From the NCBI RefSeq assembly GCF_003334255.1, contig NZ_QOWU01000003.1: a stretch of 64,000 nt of DNA; one strand, written 5' to 3'. Under the pieces are notes generated by a model that had not been told where the DNA came from, made no database searches, and saw nothing but the letters and a program-made list of their open reading frames with translations. Within the stretch, counting starts at the first letter, position 1. Every line of letters starts with the position of its first letter. This document shows positions 2,690 through 37,997 of the stretch, piece by piece. The position numbers were made by a program, and so were the translations under genes. The DNA comes from Escherichia coli. Its GTDB lineage: Bacteria; Pseudomonadota; Gammaproteobacteria; Enterobacterales; Enterobacteriaceae.

Positions 2690-3274
2690 ATGAATAAAGT
2701 TACAAAAACAGCTATTGCGGGCTTACTTGCGCTTTTCGCAGGTAATGCCGCTGCAACCGATGGTGAAATAGTTTTTGATGGCGAGATTTTAAAATCCGCT
2801 TGTGAAATCAATGACTCTGATAAGAAAATTGAAGTTGCTCTTGGTCACTATAATGCCGAACAGTTTCGTAATATTGGCGAGCGTAGCCCAAAAATTCCAT
2901 TCACTATTCCTTTAGTTAACTGCCCAATGACTGGGTGGGAGCACGATAACGGCAACGTTGAAGCGTCTTTCCGTCTATGGCTGGAAACGCGAGATAATGG
3001 CACCGTCCCTAACTTCCCTAATCTGGCAAAAGTAGGCTCTTTTGCTGGCATAGCGGCAACAGGTGTGGGTATCCGTATTGACGATGCGGAAAGCGGAAAC
3101 ATTATGCCACTGAATGCTATGGGCAATGATAACACGGTTTATCAGATCCCGGCGGAATCCAATGGTATTGTCAATGTTGACCTCATCGCTTACTACGTAT
3201 CAACCGTAGTTCCATCAGAAATCACCCCAGGGGAAGCAGACGCTATCGTTAACGTAACGCTGGATTACCGTTAA
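2690..3274 (+). CDS. yraH: Fimbrial major subunit-like protein
   Basis: 194 aa; N-terminal signal peptide (MNKVTKTAIAGLLALFAGNAAA); fimbrial subunit-like. Confidence 0.9.
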   Translation: MNKVTKTAIAGLLALFAGNAAATDGEIVFDGEILKSACEINDSDKKIEVALGHYNAEQFRNIGERSPKIPFTIPLVNCPMTGWEHDNGNVEASFRLWLETRDNGTVPNFPNLAKVGSFAGIAATGVGIRIDDAESGNIMPLNAMGNDNTVYQIPAESNGIVNVDLIAYYVSTVVPSEITPGEADAIVNVTLDYR

Positions 3275-3282
3275 TACGTTAG

Positions 3283-3317
3283 GGCGTTATCTGACCTGTC
3301 AGATAACGCCCTTTTCC
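3283..3317 (+). terminator. Intrinsic terminator/attenuator after fimbrial subunit gene
   Basis: Perfect inverted repeat GGCGTTATCTGAC-CT-GTCAGATAACGCC followed by CTTTTCC. Confidence 0.7.
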
Positions 3318-3353
3318 TTCCTCTTTCTCGTTGTATCAGGTTGAAAAATAACT

Positions 3354-4049
3354 ATGTCAAAACGAACATTCGCGGTGATATTAACCTTGTTGTGTAGCTT
3401 CTGTATTGGCCAGGCGCTTGCAGGAGGAATCGTTTTACAGCGAACGCGAGTGATCTATGATGCCAGCCGCAAAGAGGCTGCGTTACCTGTCGCAAACAAA
3501 GGCGCAGAAACGCCTTATTTACTGCAATCATGGGTAGATAATATAGATGGTAAAAGCCGTGCCCCATTTATTATAACCCCACCGCTATTTCGTCTTGAGG
3601 CTGGCGATGACTCATCACTGCGAATTATTAAAACAGCTGATAACCTGCCTGAAAATAAAGAGTCGCTGTTCTACATTAATGTTCGTGCCATTCCAGCAAA
3701 GAAAAAATCAGATGATGTTAATGCTAACGAGTTGACGCTGGTATTTAAAACACGGATCAAAATGTTTTATCGCCCCGCACACCTGAAGGGACGGGTAAAC
3801 GATGCGTGGAAATCACTGGAATTTAAACGTAGTGACCATTCACTCAATATATATAACCCAACTGAATATTACGTCGTATTTGCCGGACTGGCAGTCGATA
3901 AAACCGATCTCACAAGCAAAATTGAATATATCGCGCCCGGAGAACATAAACAGTTACCACTTCCTGCATCTGGCGGAAAGAACGTGAAATGGGCTGCGAT
4001 CAATGATTATGGCGGCAGTTCCGGGACAGAAACTCGTCCACTGCAATAA
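3354..4049 (+). CDS. yraI: Periplasmic fimbrial chaperone (PapD-like)
   Basis: 231 aa with signal peptide; PapD-family chaperone features. Confidence 0.9.
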
Positions 4050-4077
4050 AAAATATAAAAACACAGGTCATCAGGGA

Positions 4078-6594
4078 ATGCCACAACGACACCACCAGGG
4101 ACATAAACGCACACCGAAACAGTTGGCGCTCATCATCAAACGTTGTTTGCCGATGGTGCTCACTGGCAGCGGCATGCTTTGCACTACCGCTAACGCCGAA
4201 GAGTATTATTTCGACCCCATTATGCTGGAAACCACAAAAAGTGGTATGCAAACAACCGATCTGTCGCGTTTTTCAAAAAAATATGCACAACTACCAGGAA
4301 CTTATCAGGTTGATATCTGGCTGAATAAAAAGAAGGTTTCACAGAAAAAAATTACATTTACCGCCAATGCAGAGCAACTTCTGCAGCCACAGTTTACGGT
4401 AGAACAACTACGTGAGCTGGGTATTAAGGTGGATGAAATCCCGGCGCTGGCTGAAAAAGATGACGATAGCGTGATCAACTCGCTTGAACAAATCATTCCC
4501 GGTACAGCTGCTGAATTTGATTTCAATCATCAGCAACTTAATTTGAGCATTCCCCAAATTGCACTGTACCGTGATGCAAGAGGTTACGTCTCCCCTTCTC
4601 GTTGGGACGATGGTATACCAACGCTGTTTACCAACTACTCGTTTACAGGTTCTGATAACCGTTACCGCCAGGGCAATCGTAGCCAACGACAGTACCTGAA
4701 TATGCAAAATGGTGCTAATTTTGGCCCCTGGCGATTACGCAACTATTCCACATGGACACGCAACGATCAGACATCAAGCTGGAATACCATCAGTAGTTAT
4801 TTACAACGTGATATCAAGGCGTTGAAGTCTCAGTTGCTTCTGGGAGAAAGCGCCACCAGCGGCAGTATTTTTTCCAGCTACACCTTTACTGGCGTGCAAC
4901 TCGCTTCCGACGATAATATGTTGCCAAACAGCCAGCGCGGATTTGCCCCAACGGTACGCGGTATCGCAAACAGTAGTGCAATCGTGACTATCAGGCAAAA
5001 TGGTTATGTGATCTATCAAAGCAACGTGTCAGCGGGTGCCTTTGAAATTAACGATCTCTACCCCTCTTCCAACAGCGGCGATTTAGAAGTCACGATTGAA
5101 GAAAGTGACGGTACACAACGTCGCTTTATCCAGCCTTATTCTTCATTACCCATGATGCAGCGACCTGGGCATCTAAAGTATAGCGCGACCGCTGGACGCT
5201 ATCGCGCTGATGCAAACAGTGATAGCAAGGAACCCGAATTTGCTGAAGCCACGGCAATATATGGTTTGAATAATACTTTTACGCTGTATGGCGGCCTGCT
5301 CGGTTCTGAAGATTATTATGCGCTGGGGATCGGTATCGGCGGCACACTTGGCGCACTGGGCGCGTTGTCGATGGATATCAACAGAGCTGACACCCAATTC
5401 GATAACCAGCACTCTTTTCATGGCTATCAATGGCGTACGCAGTACATCAAAGATATCCCGGAAACCAACACCAATATCGCTGTCAGCTACTATCGCTATA
5501 CCAACGATGGCTATTTTAGTTTTAATGAAGCCAATACCCGCAATTGGGACTATAACAGTCGCCAAAAAAGTGAAATTCAATTCAACATCAGCCAGACAAT
5601 ATTTGATGGGGTAAGTCTGTATGCCTCCGGTTCGCAGCAAGACTATTGGGGCAATAACGATAAAAACAGGAATATCTCTGTTGGGGTTTCCGGCCAGCAA
5701 TGGGGAGTTGGTTACAGCCTGAATTATCAATACAGCCGCTACACTGATCAAAATAATGACCGCGCACTCTCTTTGAATCTCAGTATTCCGTTAGAACGCT
5801 GGTTACCGCGTAGCCGGGTTTCCTATCAGATGACCAGCCAGAAAGATCGCCCAACCCAACATGAAATGCGTCTTGATGGCTCACTGCTGGATGATGGTCG
5901 CCTGAGCTATAGCCTGGAACAAAGTCTGGATGACGATAACAACCATAACAGTAGCCTGAACGCCAGTTACCGTTCACCTTATGGCACCTTCAGTGCCGGA
6001 TACAGCTACGGTAATGACAGCAGCCAATACAATTACGGCGTTACCGGCGGCGTGGTTATCCATCCTCATGGCGTGACGCTCTCGCAATATCTGGGCAACG
6101 CTTTTGCGCTTATCGATGCTAACGGAGCATCTGGCGTGAGGATACAAAACTATCCGGGGATTGCTACCGATCCTTTTGGCTATGCAGTGGTTCCTTATCT
6201 CACAACTTATCAGGAAAACCGTCTCTCGGTAGATACTACGCAGCTGCCCGATAACGTCGATCTTGAACAAACAACACAGTTTGTGGTGCCCAACAGAGGT
6301 GCAATGGTAGCGGCGCGTTTCAACGCCAATATCGGTTATCGCGTACTTGTTACAGTCAGCGATCGCAACGGTAAACCGTTGCCCTTTGGCGCTCTTGCCA
6401 GCAACGATGATACGGGGCAACAAAGTATCGTCGATGAGGGCGGCATACTATATCTCTCTGGGATATCGAGTAAATCACAAAGCTGGACTGTACGCTGGGG
6501 AAATCAGGCAGATCAACAATGTCAGTTTGCTTTCAGTACACCGGATTCAGAACCTACAACCTCTGTATTACAAGGCACAGCGCAGTGCCATTAA
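4078..6594 (+). CDS. yraJ: Outer-membrane fimbrial usher
   Basis: 838 aa from ATG 4078 (MPQRHHQGHKRTPKQLALIIKR...); usher-family beta-barrel protein; longest ORF begins 25 codons upstream. Confidence 0.9.
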   Translation: MPQRHHQGHKRTPKQLALIIKRCLPMVLTGSGMLCTTANAEEYYFDPIMLETTKSGMQTTDLSRFSKKYAQLPGTYQVDIWLNKKKVSQKKITFTANAEQLLQPQFTVEQLRELGIKVDEIPALAEKDDDSVINSLEQIIPGTAAEFDFNHQQLNLSIPQIALYRDARGYVSPSRWDDGIPTLFTNYSFTGSDNRYRQGNRSQRQYLNMQNGANFGPWRLRNYSTWTRNDQTSSWNTISSYLQRDIKALKSQLLLGESATSGSIFSSYTFTGVQLASDDNMLPNSQRGFAPTVRGIANSSAIVTIRQNGYVIYQSNVSAGAFEINDLYPSSNSGDLEVTIEESDGTQRRFIQPYSSLPMMQRPGHLKYSATAGRYRADANSDSKEPEFAEATAIYGLNNTFTLYGGLLGSEDYYALGIGIGGTLGALGALSMDINRADTQFDNQHSFHGYQWRTQYIKDIPETNTNIAVSYYRYTNDGYFSFNEANTRNWDYNSRQKSEIQFNISQTIFDGVSLYASGSQQDYWGNNDKNRNISVGVSGQQWGVGYSLNYQYSRYTDQNNDRALSLNLSIPLERWLPRSRVSYQMTSQKDRPTQHEMRLDGSLLDDGRLSYSLEQSLDDDNNHNSSLNASYRSPYGTFSAGYSYGNDSSQYNYGVTGGVVIHPHGVTLSQYLGNAFALIDANGASGVRIQNYPGIATDPFGYAVVPYLTTYQENRLSVDTTQLPDNVDLEQTTQFVVPNRGAMVAARFNANIGYRVLVTVSDRNGKPLPFGALASNDDTGQQSIVDEGGILYLSGISSKSQSWTVRWGNQADQQCQFAFSTPDSEPTTSVLQGTAQCH

Positions 6595-6604
6595 GGATAA
6601 AAAA

Positions 6605-7696
6605 ATGAAAAGAGCGCCTCTTATAACAGGTCTTTTGTTGATATCCACATCCTGCACTTATGCCTCCTCAGGAGGGTGTGGAGCCGACAGCACTAGCGGT
6701 GCGACAAATTACAGCAGTGTGGTTGATGATGTTACGGTGAACCAGACAGATAACGTGACAGGACGGGAGTTTACCTCTGCAACGCTAAGTAGCACTAACT
6801 GGCAATACGCCTGTTCCTGCTCTGCGGGTAAGGCAGTTAAACTTGTCTATATGGTCAGCCCCGTACTTACCACCACTGGACATCAGACAGGATATTACAA
6901 ACTCAATGACAGCCTGGATATTAAAACCACATTACAGGCAAACGACATTCCAGGACTCACAACCGACCAGGTTGTCTCTGTTAACACCCGATTCACACAG
7001 ATAAAAAACAACACGGTATATTCTGCTGCAACCCAAACGGGTGTTTGCCAGGGTGATACGTCTCGTTATGGACCCGTTAATATTGGTGCGAACACCACCT
7101 TTACCCTGTATGTCACCAAGCCATTTCTCGGCTCGATGACCATTCCGAAAACGGATATTGCCGTCATTAAAGGCGCGTGGGTCGATGGAATGGGAAGCCC
7201 GTCTACAGGTGACTTCCATGATTTAGTCAAGTTATCGATTCAGGGAAATCTCACCGCCCCACAGTCGTGCAAAATTAATCAGGGCGATGTTATTAAGGTT
7301 AATTTTGGATTCATCAATGGTCAGAAGTTTACCACCCGCAATGCCATGCCAGACGGTTTTACTCCAGTAGACTTTGATATCACTTATGACTGTGGTGATA
7401 CTTCAAAGATTAAAAACTCGTTGCAAATGCGCATCGACGGTACAACTGGGGTAGTAGACCAGTACAACCTGGTCGCCAGGCGAAGAAGTTCAGACAATGT
7501 GCCCGATGTCGGTATTCGTATTGAAAATCTCGGCGGCGGAGTTGCAAATATTCCTTTTCAGAACGGTATCCTTCCCGTTGATCCTTCCGGGCATGGCACC
7601 GTCAATATGCGCGCCTGGCCAGTTAATCTGGTCGGTGGTGAGCTGGAAACAGGAAAATTTCAGGGCACAGCCACCATTACCGTCATCGTGCGGTAA
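6605..7696 (+). CDS. yraK: Fimbrial adhesin-like (tip) protein
   Basis: 363 aa from ATG 6605 ([22 protein letters not shown]...); signal peptide; last gene of the chaperone-usher operon. Confidence 0.85.
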
Positions 7697-33886: not shown

Positions 33887-35245
<1,359 letters not shown>

Positions 35246-35252
35246 TTCGACA

Positions 35253-36878
35253 TCAACCCTGCCCTTCAGGGGTGGGGTTACCTTGCTTATCCTCTGTAAA
35301 CTCCTTTCTGAGCATCACATAATCGAAAACATCATGGTTTGCATCCACAACCCGTGAGTCTCCTTTATAGTGTGCAATCACTTCCTCAAGCGTTTGCGGC
35401 TGTTCCGGCTTTGTTACCCCCATCCACGCATTAATAAGGTAATTATTGTAAGCTGTCGAAAAGATGTTGTTTTCCGTTGTGCGATCCACGCCATCCCCAA
35501 GAACGGGGCTATACCAGATAAACATCGGGACATGATATGCCTGCTGGCTAGCCTCCCTGCCTCCATGAAAATAGACGTTCTTCTTCGTAGGGTCACGTTC
35601 CAGGCCGTGGTCGGCAAAATACATGACCGAGGCGCGGCGATCTTTTAATAATTCAAAAACCTGACCTAGCAAACTATCTGTGTAATGAATGGAGTTGTCA
35701 TAGCAGGCATCCTGATCGTCCTGCGGTTGAAACACGGCGCTGGATTGCGGATAGGCGCTACAAGCCGGTTCATGGCTTCCATTTAAATGAAGAACAATCA
35801 GTTTCTTTTGCTGCGTATTTTGCTGTAATGCTTGCGATAAATGCGGCAACAACAATTCATCAAATCCTCTGACATAAACTGTTTCCATGGCGCGCATGGC
35901 GATACTGGTAACTGCTGTACCATTCTGCCGAAAAGCGGATTGCGAGCTTAGCCAGAAAGTCTGAAATCCTGCTTGATTAGCCATATTAATAATGTTGTCG
36001 GGGTAATTATGAATGTCATGACTCAAAACAGAATCAGCAGTTAAAGAAAGGGGAACCGACAGCGCAGTGTAAGGTGCGCCGCTTATTGCTTGATTAAACA
36101 GTTTGATCTGTTTTCTTTGTGCTTCAACTTGCGGTGTCGTAGAGCGTGTATATCCATACAAAGACATATTGTCGACACGTACAGACTCCCCCACAATCAA
36201 CACGTAGGTATCAATACCTGTATCCCTGACTGATAATTGAAAATACGGCACCGTGTTTGCAATTGAGAGTAATCTTTGATGCTCTTTCGCTGCTAAAGCA
36301 AAATAGTTGAGATTGAAAAACGGCGTATAGGTAGCAAATCGCGACGCTAGTATATATGGACTGAACGCTTTTTTATTTTTTGCATCTTTATAAGCAAATT
36401 GACAAGCGGAAAATAAACTGCCCGAAATGACAATCAGCAATAATATTCCTGTCACTTTTTTTGTCGGCAAGGAAACATCATATTTTATTATTACTGCCAA
36501 AAAAAGAAGGGATAAAAAAGCAAAGGCACATAGATAAGGGATATACATCCCCAGCATTTTGACAACTTCATCCGGATCACTCTGGAGCACACTAATCGCA
36601 AATCCATCATTGAAAGTTGTACCAAAGGTACACCATGAATAGAGGCTAATACTCATGTCTGCCGCAGTCAGTAACACAAATGGTGCGGCAACAAGCAGGC
36701 GAAGCGGAAGGGATGATATACGTTTTACAACCAGGATGGTCAGAACGAAGAACAGCAAGCGCTGAACCATATGCGCTCCGGAAGAAGCGACTAAGTTCGT
36801 AATACCAAAAACAATAACACAAAGATACAACAACCAATGAGATTTAAAAGTTCTAGCAAATTTGTTGAATACTGTCAT
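35253..36878 (-). CDS. yhbX: Putative phosphoethanolamine transferase (sulfatase/EptA-like inner membrane protein)
   Basis: 541 aa from ATG 36878; N-terminal TM helices and C-terminal sulfatase-like domain; visibly AT-rich. Confidence 0.85.
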   Translation of the reverse strand: MTVFNKFARTFKSHWLLYLCVIVFGITNLVASSGAHMVQRLLFFVLTILVVKRISSLPLRLLVAAPFVLLTAADMSISLYSWCTFGTTFNDGFAISVLQSDPDEVVKMLGMYIPYLCAFAFLSLLFLAVIIKYDVSLPTKKVTGILLLIVISGSLFSACQFAYKDAKNKKAFSPYILASRFATYTPFFNLNYFALAAKEHQRLLSIANTVPYFQLSVRDTGIDTYVLIVGESVRVDNMSLYGYTRSTTPQVEAQRKQIKLFNQAISGAPYTALSVPLSLTADSVLSHDIHNYPDNIINMANQAGFQTFWLSSQSAFRQNGTAVTSIAMRAMETVYVRGFDELLLPHLSQALQQNTQQKKLIVLHLNGSHEPACSAYPQSSAVFQPQDDQDACYDNSIHYTDSLLGQVFELLKDRRASVMYFADHGLERDPTKKNVYFHGGREASQQAYHVPMFIWYSPVLGDGVDRTTENNIFSTAYNNYLINAWMGVTKPEQPQTLEEVIAHYKGDSRVVDANHDVFDYVMLRKEFTEDKQGNPTPEGQG

Positions 36879-37299
36879 CCAGAAATCCAAGTTCACAACC
36901 AATATAAACAATTATCAACAATGTTTAATTTTATATCAGACATGTTTTTCAACTCTGATCCATATCAGAACGAAACACTGTTAGTTTTTTCTTTTTAAAT
37001 GATGCGGCCATTGCGTTCTCAGTAATTAAATAACATTATCAATGCGTCTCTAAACATTACGCAGAACGTAGCCATCAGTCGTTATACTGACAGGAGCAGG
37101 ATGGTTTATCGAGAAGTAAACATATCCGTATTCGTACCGGAACTGGAGTTGACACAATAAAGTGCCAATTATGTCAGTAGAAGGGAAAAATTTATAACTA
37201 AGGCGTACCGGCACCATCGTTTCAAGGTACCAGCTACGAGTAAAGCAACTGGACGAGATACAGATACCTGACAACCATTCCTCAGACCTGGACCAAAAC

Positions 37300-37323
37300 G
37301 AAAAAAGACGCTTTTCAGCGTCT
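37300..37323 (-). terminator. Intrinsic terminator after leuU (secG-leuU transcript)
   Basis: Minus strand GACGCT-GAAA-AGCGTC followed by TTTTTT. Confidence 0.75.
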
Positions 37324-37336
37324 CTTTTCTGGAATT

Positions 37337-37423
37337 TGGTACCGAGGACGGGACTTGAACCCGTAAGCCCTATTGGGCACTACCACCTCAAGGTAGCGTG
37401 TCTACCAATTCCACCACCTCGGC
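37337..37423 (-). tRNA. leuU: tRNA-Leu (GAG anticodon)
   Basis: Minus strand reads GCCGAGGTGGTGGAATTGGTAGACACGCTACCTTGAGGTGGTAGTGCCCAATAGGGCTTACGGGTTCAAGTCCCGTCCTCGGTACCA (87 nt, long variable arm). Confidence 0.95.
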
Positions 37424-37437
37424 ACGGATACTACTTT

Positions 37438-37770
37438 TTAGTTCGGGATATCGCTGGTCGGCTTAGCCGGAGCAGCTGGCTGAGTTTGTTCGGTTTTCGC
37501 CGGTGCACTCAGATTTTCCCATTCGCTACCTTTATTGGTTTTGTTGCTATTGATGTTACCCAGCACCAGACTGATGATGAAGAATAACGTTGCCAGCAGC
37601 GCCGTCATGCGGGTCATGAAGTTACCAGAACCACTTGAACCAAACAGCGTAGCGGAAGCGCCTGCTCCGAAGGAGGCTCCCATATCAGCGCCTTTACCTT
37701 GCTGCAGCATGATCAGACCAACAAGGCCAATTGCCACAATAAGGAAAACTACTAAAAGAGCTTCATACAT
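37438..37770 (-). CDS. secG: Protein translocase subunit SecG
   Basis: 110 aa from ATG 37770 (MYEALLVVFLIVAIGLVGLIMLQQGKGADMGASFGAGA…). Confidence 0.95.
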   Translation of the reverse strand: MYEALLVVFLIVAIGLVGLIMLQQGKGADMGASFGAGASATLFGSSGSGNFMTRMTALLATLFFIISLVLGNINSNKTNKGSEWENLSAPAKTEQTQPAAPAKPTSDIPN

Positions 37771-37997
37771 AATCAACCTGTTCCTTGCGGAGTTGCCGCG
37801 TACCAATGCTTCAACCAATAAAGCGGGAGTTTTTAATCTTTCCCACTGAAGCGGGTGTGAATACTAACCAAAGCGAATGACCTTCGCAAGGGCAATTTTA
37901 TCGCATTGTATCAACTGCGGAAAAAAACAGCAAAACCGATGTGTTCGCTGAGAAAAAAGGCGACAATCGCCGCCTTTTTAGCCAGTTATCTAACGCT

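Follow-up and report, generated by a model that had tools for sequence, protein, structure and literature searches.

The E. coli chromosome contains integrase-free hotspots of gene gain and replacement, in which accessory genes occupy fixed positions between conserved core genes. A second well-described kind of variable locus is the tRNA island, such as those at leuX, pheV, selC and thrW; these are 10-200 kb in length, and integrase islands normally recombine within the 3' end of the tRNA gene. We compare both with a 2-kb AT-rich islet that carries yhbX and lies between argG and the tRNA gene leuU, in a window of 64,000 nt of E. coli DNA.

The yhbX islet resembles the integrase-free hotspots in its fixed position between core genes, its mutually exclusive and AT-rich cargos, its lack of mobility genes and its sharp breakpoints at conserved flanks. 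It differs from them in being very small, with a single gene, and in having one cargo nearly fixed (95% of genomes); its left breakpoint cuts into a core gene, at the final two codons of argG, and the slot is used in several other genera too. With the tRNA islands it has in common that it adjoins a tRNA gene, that its cargo is foreign and AT-rich, and that a relative of yhbX is borne by such islands elsewhere in E. coli. Unlike them, it is only 2 kb long, has neither an integrase nor a repeat of the tRNA 3' end, and is separated from the tRNA gene by a terminator. We put at roughly three in four the probability that positions ~35237-37294 are a small horizontally acquired islet, seated in the permissive junction of the converging argG and secG-leuU units.

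The protein itself has its closest described counterparts among the phosphoethanolamine (PEtN) transferases EptA/PmrC, EptB, EptC/CptA, OpgE and MCR (family alias YhbX/YhjW/YijP/YjdB), with which it shares predicted membrane and periplasmic sulfatase-fold domains.

Layout of the locus

The conserved left flank is argG (33902..35245, plus strand; argininosuccinate synthase, from ORF and annotation). The islet's AT-rich cargo gene yhbX (35253..36878, minus strand; 541 aa from the RefSeq ATG, likewise from ORF and annotation) converges on it, and in the sequence only 7 bp (35246..35252) separate the two stop codons. On the other side of yhbX a spacer of 458 bp without annotated genes (36879..37336) leads to leuU (37337..37423, minus strand), an intact tRNA-Leu(GAG) gene by annotation, ARAGORN and Rfam (tRNA, 52.8 bits), which together with secG (37438..37770) belongs to the conserved right flank. 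This is the arrangement given in the original prediction, which had yhbX converging on argG across 7 bp and the islet sitting beside the leuU tRNA gene; leuU does follow directly on the spacer.

Cargo of the argG-leuU slot

Among the matches listed, 16 other Enterobacteriaceae species, of at least nine genera, share the gene order metY-argG...leuU-secG-glmM, and in none of these 16 was a YhbX homologue found in the argG-leuU interval. The gap is empty and measures 114-304 bp in eight of the 16 species listed (two Citrobacter, Phytobacter, four Enterobacter and one MAG); both Citrobacter have retained a clean terminator of argG there. Elsewhere the interval holds cargo unrelated to yhbX: an RclR-like regulator and an AhpD-like protein in Kluyvera; an Agp phosphatase, an SDR and a PrpA-like phosphatase in 'Escherichia sp. 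ESNIH1'; IprA-like and OmpA-like proteins in strain RIT691; and unrelated cargo also in Pluralibacter. Among the ORFs listed for the slot cargo of five other genera, seven of which were scanned against NCBIfam, none is integrase-like. The comparison shows that in the ancestral Enterobacteriaceae state argG was followed by a terminator of its own and, 100-300 bp further on, by the leuU terminator and leuU. Because the cargo differs from lineage to lineage and neither an integrase nor an attachment repeat was seen, the gap acts as an integrase-free hotspot of gene gain and replacement, filled by unrelated cargo across lineages. The 16 species listed do not include Salmonella, Klebsiella, E. albertii or the cryptic Escherichia clades, so that they bracket the time of the yhbX capture only loosely; for Salmonella LT2 and C. 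rodentium, absence of YhbX is suggested by the proteins named in a figure legend (PMC4013655).

The slot also varies among genomes labelled E. coli. It holds yhbX in 5167 of 5426 complete genomes, an unrelated AT-rich gene for a 317-aa HTH protein in 237, and the E. fergusonii version in nine; 13 more fall in none of these three slot classes at ≥80% coverage. A look-up by exact SecG sequence returned yhbX-type contexts only, with no further cargo. The nine genomes with the E. fergusonii allele were considered as a third E. coli haplotype, an idea dropped after comparison of strain AST85, which differs from K-12 by 2-6% over 50 kb and matches E. fergusonii at 98.9% identity over 10.6 kb. These nine 'E. 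coli' genomes, of which AST85 is the one examined, may be mislabelled, and so possibly represent no polymorphism inside E. coli.

The original prediction had suggested an old horizontal acquisition and had proposed a synteny comparison across related genera. In that comparison yhbX is not universal at argG-leuU, and acquisition survives it: the slot lacks yhbX in 16 species among the matches listed, and of the 5426 genomes labelled E. coli 237 have other cargo there. The age of the acquisition is upheld as well. Identity to yhbX within the species is ≥99% in 2932 genomes and 95-99% in 2493; for the core neighbour glmM the corresponding numbers are 3073 and 2330. This likeness of the two diversity profiles indicates that yhbX was resident before E. 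coli diversified.

Boundaries of the islet

Comparison of the haplotypes places the breakpoints of the variable segment in the final two codons of argG on the left and at 37294/37295 on the right. The last two sense codons of argG (35237..35242, GGC CAG) thus fall in the variable segment: the gene ends ..AAA GGC CAG TAA in K-12, ..AAA GTT AAG TAA in the HTH haplotype, and ..AAA GCG AAA/AAG TAA in E. fergusonii, Citrobacter and Phytobacter. The HTH haplotype retains a Citrobacter-like argG terminator; its flanks are 99.3-99.7% identical to those of K-12, with the mismatches concentrated in the final 800 nt of argG.

The right edge is formed by the conserved 42-bp leuU terminator region (37295..37336, minus strand), in which a terminator-like hairpin (37329..37300) is followed by a T run. 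This region is near-identical between the K-12, HTH and E. fergusonii haplotypes of Escherichia, and genomes lacking yhbX match the query nowhere else. In Enterobacter sp. L017 a terminator stands at the same position, with a diverged sequence.

Near the left edge, a degenerate GC-rich hairpin, ACCCTGCCC..GGGGTGGGGT (35255..35279), lies inside the last 10 codons of K-12 yhbX; its fold of -17.1 kcal/mol on the plus strand (z = -1.2) is not significant alone. The E. fergusonii-type cassette has a clean intergenic 8-bp hairpin, with z = -3.2 and -4.3 on its two strands. K-12 YhbX is 10 aa longer at its C-terminus, ending ..DKQGNPTPEGQG as against ..DKQ in the E. fergusonii type, and from the 3'-end alignment the K-12 hairpin is probably the counterpart of the E. 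fergusonii-type one.

Upstream of yhbX, the variable region 36879..37294 (~38% GC, no annotated gene) presumably holds the promoter and regulatory region of the gene, particular to the K-12-type cassette. Beyond the leuU terminator the three YhbX-clade genes have upstream regions that do not align with one another, and hence no shared regulatory element can be claimed. In promoter and terminator scans of the spacer, promoter-like matches were as frequent as in shuffles and the leuU terminator alone stood out; an Rfam search of the spacer for an RNA element (E ≤ 1) had the tRNA as its sole match. One genomic SELEX study, where it deals with constitutive heat-shock sigma factor promoters, lists a weak peak of binding between yhbX and leuU (PMC5493296).

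Search for marks of a tRNA-integrated element

The islet might instead be the remains of a classical tRNA island, that is, of a tyrosine-integrase element that entered at leuU with yhbX aboard and whose integrase and repeats have since decayed. Such an origin would fit the abutment on a tRNA gene, and a related YhbX-clade gene does travel in this way: in 344 genomes, or ~6% of those of E. coli, integrase-bearing chromosomal islands carry a third version, ~65% identical, and a member of this third type is also found on a circular element of 62 kb that has an integrase. We nevertheless consider this origin unlikely for the islet at leuU.

First, nothing resembling the 3' end of leuU was detected above chance: when leuU or its 3' 45 nt was aligned with 35246..37336, the best local alignment was matched or bettered by 25-35% of composition-matched random sequences (p ~0.25-0.35). 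A 20-nt repeat (37210..37229 / 37376..37395, 75% identity) was tried as a leuU 3' remnant and rejected, since it is at chance level, as are the best Smith-Waterman matches.

Second, the spacer has neither an integrase nor an IS fragment and is unlike plasmid-borne mobile DNA. Its nucleotide search against a plasmid collection gave no plasmid-borne or IS match, only four E. coli chromosome-like records. No integrase is annotated in it, and its only ORFs of ≥60 aa are a 74-aa ORF with a TTG start and an 83-aa ORF that starts at its last base. The original prediction had likewise reported no integrase, direct repeat of the leuU 3' end or IS remnant, and this holds in the alignment, in the Rfam search and in the searches for mobile DNA.

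Third, the geometry is unlike that of integration into a tRNA 3' end. Variable DNA starts 42 bp past the 3' end of leuU, beyond a terminator conserved in all haplotypes, and therefore lies outside the tRNA gene; the left breakpoint is inside the coding sequence of argG. The slot cargo of the five other genera, without an integrase-like ORF among those listed (seven of them scanned against NCBIfam), also speaks against such an element. Nothing relevant on leuU as an integration site was found in the literature. Adjacency to leuU is not demonstrated, by 3'-repeat or breakpoint evidence, to be the cause of the insertion. The original prediction had pointed to the tRNA gene as a classic integration hotspot; the slot does behave as a hotspot, but a role for the tRNA is not shown, the insertion lying outside leuU and past its terminator.

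Diverged versions of yhbX

The K-12 and E. fergusonii versions of YhbX share 69.5% protein identity, with saturated synonymous sites (pS = 0.75) and dN = 0.215, whereas the genes flanking them share 99-100% protein identity, with dS of 0.04-0.33. Each of the three Escherichia versions differs from the others by 30-35%, although two of them share the argG-leuU slot in sister species and the third is the one on integrase islands. The gene that E. fergusonii has in the slot would appear to be a foreign-copy replacement or a separate capture, rather than the product of divergence since the species split. Outside Escherichia the nearest relatives (41-48% identity) are scattered in Buttiauxella, Mixta, Pectobacterium and Microvirgula, the last a betaproteobacterium. 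For two of them, in Buttiauxella noackiae and Mixta gaviniae, the surroundings were fetched, and both lie at loci other than argG-leuU. The search with YhbX among 1.84 billion representatives found only 121 clusters at E ≤ 1e-30. Distant relatives were visible by this representative search only, word-index searches being swamped by near-identical E. coli entries; word-index protein searches, run with YhbX as well as the E. fergusonii allele, found nothing at 70-99% identity to the latter.

These data bear on a further explanation, in which yhbX would be ancestral to the Enterobacteriaceae and often lost, its low GC and fast divergence following from weak selection on a membrane-protein gene that is seldom expressed. 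The gene is near-universal in E. coli, it has the same slot in E. fergusonii, and the K-12 and E. fergusonii cassettes may have a 3' hairpin in common, all of which agree with ancestry. Yet the slot is without yhbX in 16 of 16 other species among the matches listed, eight of them with a compact gap, and relatives in other genera are at most 48% identical, with unrelated loci for both whose surroundings were fetched. Relaxed selection, moreover, cannot yield saturated synonymous sites between E. coli and E. fergusonii beside flanks with so low a dS. It is further contradicted by a dN well under the saturated synonymous divergence and by invariant catalytic residues, which indicate that yhbX is under purifying selection. 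We regard ancestry with repeated loss as very improbable.

Base composition

The low GC of yhbX and its 458-bp upstream stretch, from which the original prediction had started, is readily confirmed: GC is 43.1% in yhbX (GC3 42.1%) and 38.2% in the spacer (36879..37336), against 51.2% in the window, 52.6% in argG (GC3 58.0%), 49.5% in secG and 54.4% in glmM. The windowed GC and codon-usage check that had been proposed also distinguishes yhbX from its neighbours. Its GC is the lowest among the window's 65 annotated genes (43.1% vs 51.9 ± 2.9%, z = -3.0), and in codon usage it stands apart from the average of the window (B = 0.42; 0.28 ± 0.06 for genes of ≥300 aa). Its GC3 ranks third lowest of the 65 (z = -2.1), lower values being found only in the fimbrial genes yraI and yraH.

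Low GC by itself is weak evidence of foreign origin, two fimbrial genes having a lower GC3. The least probable explanation of all is that the dip is meaningless, a product of membrane-protein amino acids and an ordinary AT-rich promoter that says nothing of origin: intergenic regions are normally AT-rich, the GC2 of yhbX (37.5%) is close to that of its neighbours, and a low GC3 is shared by others of the window's genes, rpmA, rplU and yraH/I among them, but the deficit lies at GC1 (49.6%, neighbours ~60-65%) and GC3 (42.1%, neighbours 54-58%) and not at GC2, and the synteny and replacement data contradict it. The case for a foreign origin of yhbX thus no longer depends on composition, because it is made by presence, absence and replacement across genomes.

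The YhbX protein

YhbX matches the Pfam Sulfatase domain (PF00884) at residues 224-467 with E = 3e-56, as well as the solved N. meningitidis structures of EptA (5fgn) and EptC (5zzu) with E ~1e-23; residues 41-459 align full-length with EptA 5fgn. Comparison of 11 YhbX-clade proteins shows six residues without any variation: E231, T271, H369, D423, H424 and H438. They align, in order, with E240, T280, H383, D452, H453 and H465 of N. meningitidis EptA. The placement in the EptA/sulfatase-like PEtN-transferase family that had been made from the sequence is therefore sound, resting now on PF00884, the EptA/EptC structure matches and the retained catalytic residues.

Like the EptA-type enzymes, YhbX keeps the Thr nucleophile and the metal-binding Glu/Asp/His residues. 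Unlike EptA, EptB, CptA and MCR, it lies far below the curated cut-off of every NCBIfam model for these enzymes, its best scores being 156 bits (cut-off 500) for P_eth_NH2_trans, 142 (404) for the CptA subfamily, 122 (561) for EptA and 105 (493) for EptB, and its catalytic domain is ~25-30% identical to those of EptA/EptB/CptA/OpgE/MCR.

From these matches we infer an inner-membrane enzyme of the PEtN-transferase family, built of an N-terminal membrane domain and a sulfatase fold in the periplasm. Thr271 would be the nucleophile and E231/D423/H424 the metal site, together with H369 and H438. In the predicted reaction phosphatidylethanolamine would donate PEtN to an acceptor in the envelope, for which our best guess is the LPS core or a periplasmic glycan. 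The literature found establishes no function of YhbX (PMC4013655). Because its DNA is AT-rich, we propose that yhbX is probably silenced by H-NS under laboratory conditions. It is a long shot that the YhbX clade consists of mobile, diversifying envelope-decorating enzymes with a novel PEtN acceptor, kept distinct through selection by phages or host antimicrobial peptides.

Discussion

A horizontally acquired islet in a permissive junction remains the best explanation of these observations, and the following course of events is proposed. An Escherichia lineage would have captured a gene from a rare, patchily distributed branch of the PEtN transferases, and the capture would have deleted the argG terminator and rewritten the final two argG codons. 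By the time E. coli diversified, yhbX would already have been present, and it would now be nearly core; in some E. coli lineages (237/5426) it would later have been replaced by the AT-rich HTH gene. The breakpoints and the clustered mismatches suggest that cargo may be swapped by homologous recombination in the highly conserved flanks.

As such, the yhbX islet is an ordinary kind of genome variation that will not surprise specialists. Its value is mainly one of annotation: yhbX is to be treated as an Escherichia-specific acquired gene, outside the conserved argG-secG neighbourhood. Engineered cassettes or linked markers have been placed at argG-yhbX or leuU-yhbX by two laboratories (PMC12421378; bioRxiv 10.1101/2023.02.03.527047), consistent with the argG-leuU gap being a naturally permissive insertion site. 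The locus also illustrates, cleanly and on a small scale, the reuse of one slot by several genera without an integrase. Finally, yhbX gives E. coli a fifth, uncharacterised PEtN transferase with an intact active site, and its two deeply diverged Escherichia relatives may help in the search for its substrate.

Composition and layout of the yhbX islet

The window is from a K-12-like E. coli (a 2091-bp query matched strain J53 at 100% identity). Here argG (33902..35245, + strand) and yhbX (35253..36878, − strand) converge with 7 bp between their stop codons, and the yhbX start is separated by a 458-bp spacer without any annotated feature (36879..37336) from the tRNA-Leu(GAG) gene leuU (37337..37423, − strand), which is followed by secG and glmM. 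The layout is thus as the original prediction described it, and so is the composition: GC is 43.1% in yhbX (GC3 42.1%) and 38.2% in the spacer, compared with 51.2% for the window, 52.6% for argG and 54.4% for glmM. Of 65 annotated genes in the window, none is lower in GC than yhbX (z = −3.0), which ranks third lowest in GC3 (z = −2.1); its codon-usage deviation is 0.42, against 0.28 ± 0.06 for window genes of at least 300 aa. The window minimum in GC3 belongs to yraI and yraH of the yraHIJK fimbrial operon (2690..7696, + strand; GC3 0.39–0.48); this operon, probably a further acquired islet, is missing from AST85, an E. fergusonii-like strain that has agaI directly next to rsmI.

Occupancy of the slot among E. 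coli genomes

We surveyed 5426 complete genomes labelled E. coli. K-12-type yhbX matched over at least 80% of the query in 5167, while in 237 the slot holds, on the opposite strand, a gene for an unrelated 317-aa protein; nine carry a 531-aa phosphoethanolamine (PEtN) transferase about 69% identical to YhbX, and 13 fall outside these classes. The identity profile of yhbX (2932 genomes at ≥99%, 2493 at 95–99%) mirrors that of glmM (3073 and 2330), and therefore yhbX was present before E. coli diversified. In some genomes yhbX is broken by an IS1 or IS3-family element, in another it is annotated in two pieces, and in one assembly it is not called as a gene (NZ_CP039298.1, NZ_CP077538.1, NZ_CM151393.1; comparison locus L096 4834..7022), so that occasional inactivation is tolerated.

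All haplotypes share only the 42 bp adjoining leuU (37295..37336), which contain the leuU terminator. On the left, homology breaks within the final two argG codons, which are GGC CAG in K-12, GTT AAG in the haplotype with the 317-aa gene, and GCG AAA or GCG AAG in E. fergusonii, Citrobacter and Phytobacter. An argG terminator closely resembling that of Citrobacter is kept in the haplotype with the 317-aa gene and missing from the yhbX haplotypes.

The 317-aa protein (WP_001012978.1; GC3 30%; comparison locus L003 5015..5968, + strand, counterpart of window 35237..37294) has as its sole recognizable feature an N-terminal XRE-type helix-turn-helix (HTH; Pfam HTH_19, residues 6–42), and its other 270 residues matched nothing in Pfam, NCBIfam, PADLOC or PHROGs. 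This HTH cassette has 37% GC and is at least 99% identical in 229 of the 237 genomes. Its flanks are 99.3–99.7% identical to K-12, and of the 33 left-flank mismatches 20 lie in the final 800 nt of argG, as would be expected had recombination brought in the cassette along with a piece of flank. Set against the glmM-like identity profile of yhbX, the near-uniform HTH cassette seems to have replaced yhbX later.

The same slot in other genera

An ArgG scan, taking one genome per species and with Salmonella, Klebsiella and other Escherichia species outside the sample, found the order metY-argG...leuU-secG-glmM at 16 or more Enterobacteriaceae loci among the matches listed. The argG stop and leuU lie 114–304 bp apart in Citrobacter youngae, C. 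werkmanii, Phytobacter massiliensis, four Enterobacter species and one MAG, 478–565 bp in Pseudocitrobacter and Superficieibacter, and 1.7–3.6 kb or more in Kluyvera, 'Escherichia sp. ESNIH1', strain RIT691 and two Pluralibacter. Unrelated cargo occupies the larger intervals: an RclR-like regulator with an AhpD-like protein; an Agp phosphatase with an SDR and a PrpA-like phosphatase; IprA-like and OmpA-like proteins; or a 1372-aa autotransporter-like ORF. By TBLASTN none of the 16 loci among the matches listed has a YhbX homolog in the interval, and no integrase-like ORF was noticed among the ORFs listed. For Salmonella LT2 and Citrobacter rodentium, a published figure legend names YbiP, CptA, EptA and EptB only (PMC4013655), which suggests, as far as that legend goes, that they are without YhbX. 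A second variable slot lies one gene away, with about 3.9 kb between secG and glmM in C. youngae and C. werkmanii (comparison loci L005 8962..12836 and L006 8969..12841), where E. coli has 227 bp (37771..37997).

Adjacency to leuU had raised the idea of a tRNA integration hotspot. The adjacency is real, but a role for the tRNA is not borne out: the islet holds no copy of the leuU 3' end, even partial, beyond chance, and the insert begins past the leuU terminator. Nor did ORFs, annotation or similarity to plasmid-borne DNA reveal an integrase or IS remnant in the islet, whose absence the original prediction had already noted. The slot is more aptly seen as the gap that remains where two transcription units converge and end, and inserts there interrupt nothing; that laboratories have placed synthetic operons and linked markers at this site (PMC12421378; bioRxiv 10.1101/2023.02.03.527047) fits this description. 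The argG-yhbX pair is also among listed convergent pairs with overlapping transcripts (PMC12288877).

Diverged versions of yhbX

The nine-genome allele belongs to a cluster mostly named E. fergusonii, and E. fergusonii has it in the same slot. A polymorphism within E. coli is improbable, since one of the nine, AST85 (NZ_AP043644.1), has 98.9% identity to E. fergusonii across 10.6 kb and differs from K-12 by 2–6% throughout the 50 kb compared; the nine records are therefore probably E. fergusonii-like lineages. In 23 genomes labelled E. coli, glmM is only 90–95% identical to that of K-12, and some records of the collection may be mislabelled or from divergent Escherichia lineages.

Between K-12 and E. 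fergusonii, the proteins of nusA, rimP, argG, secG, glmM and folP are 99–100% identical with dS of 0.04–0.33, whereas yhbX has 69.5% protein and 68.7% DNA identity, a synonymous-difference proportion of 0.75 (saturation) and dN of 0.215. The two copies, both low in GC (43% and 41%), therefore split long before the species did; from these comparisons, either one copy would have been replaced by a foreign relative or there would have been two separate captures. The 3' ends may still be homologous, on the modest evidence of a 10-nt identical arm. In the E. fergusonii type the two stop codons flank a clean 8-bp GC hairpin (z = −3.2 and −4.3); what is probably its degenerate K-12 counterpart (35255..35279) lies inside a 10-residue C-terminal extension of YhbX (GNPTPEGQG following ..DKQ; 35253..35285). 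K-12 YhbX appears to read through the intergenic terminator hairpin of the other cassette, which on the same modest evidence would account for the 7-bp gap.

Relatives of YhbX are few: a search of 1.84 billion cluster representatives gave only 121 at E ≤ 1e-30. The closest outside Escherichia (41–48% identity) are scattered among Buttiauxella, Mixta gaviniae, a Pectobacterium and the betaproteobacterium Microvirgula, the Buttiauxella and Mixta copies being at unrelated loci; a Providencia relative has 36% identity. A third Escherichia version (64.5% identical to K-12 YhbX, 67% to the E. fergusonii type) is carried by pRHB40-C01_2, a 62-kb circular non-mobilizable record (L100 438..2099). Besides F4-like fimbriae and IS elements, this record encodes a tyrosine recombinase and has antirestriction, RadC and YeeU/YeeV-type genes, a content resembling that of an excised integrative island. 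Of the 5426 genomes, 344 matched at least 80% of a 2.5-kb query covering this version; the single strain looked at has it in a chromosomal island that also carries an integrase (L102 14438..16111). YhbX-clade genes therefore move on mobile elements.

Function and significance

YhbX has a Sulfatase domain (Pfam; residues 224–467) and aligns over its whole length with Neisseria meningitidis EptA (5fgn) and by its catalytic domain with EptC (5zzu), at E about 1e-23. The EptA nucleophile and metal ligands correspond in the alignment to E231, T271, H369, D423, H424 and H438, and none of these residues varies among 11 YhbX-clade proteins whose identity to YhbX is otherwise 32–69%; dN between the K-12 and E. 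fergusonii copies also stays far under their saturated synonymous divergence. On these grounds YhbX is very probably active as a PEtN transferase. Its scores fall well short of the curated cut-offs for EptA, EptB, CptA and each of the MCR families, so homology cannot assign its acceptor, which may be the LPS core or a periplasmic glycan; silencing by H-NS is likewise a prediction. The literature found assigns YhbX no function (PMC4013655). A yhbX knockout was among the mutants picked up in one screen, most of which were set aside because the effect was put down to the envelope or to permeability; the paper does not give the reason that held for yhbX (PMC4551910).

The proposal of an old horizontal acquisition is upheld by composition, by absence from the other-genus loci among the matches listed, by replacement in 237 genomes and by the glmM-like age profile. 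Small, old and integrase-free, the islet was acquired at a slot that can be reused; its cargo, an uncharacterized PEtN transferase, is apparently functional. It is another example of a well-known type of genome variation, and its significance is modest.
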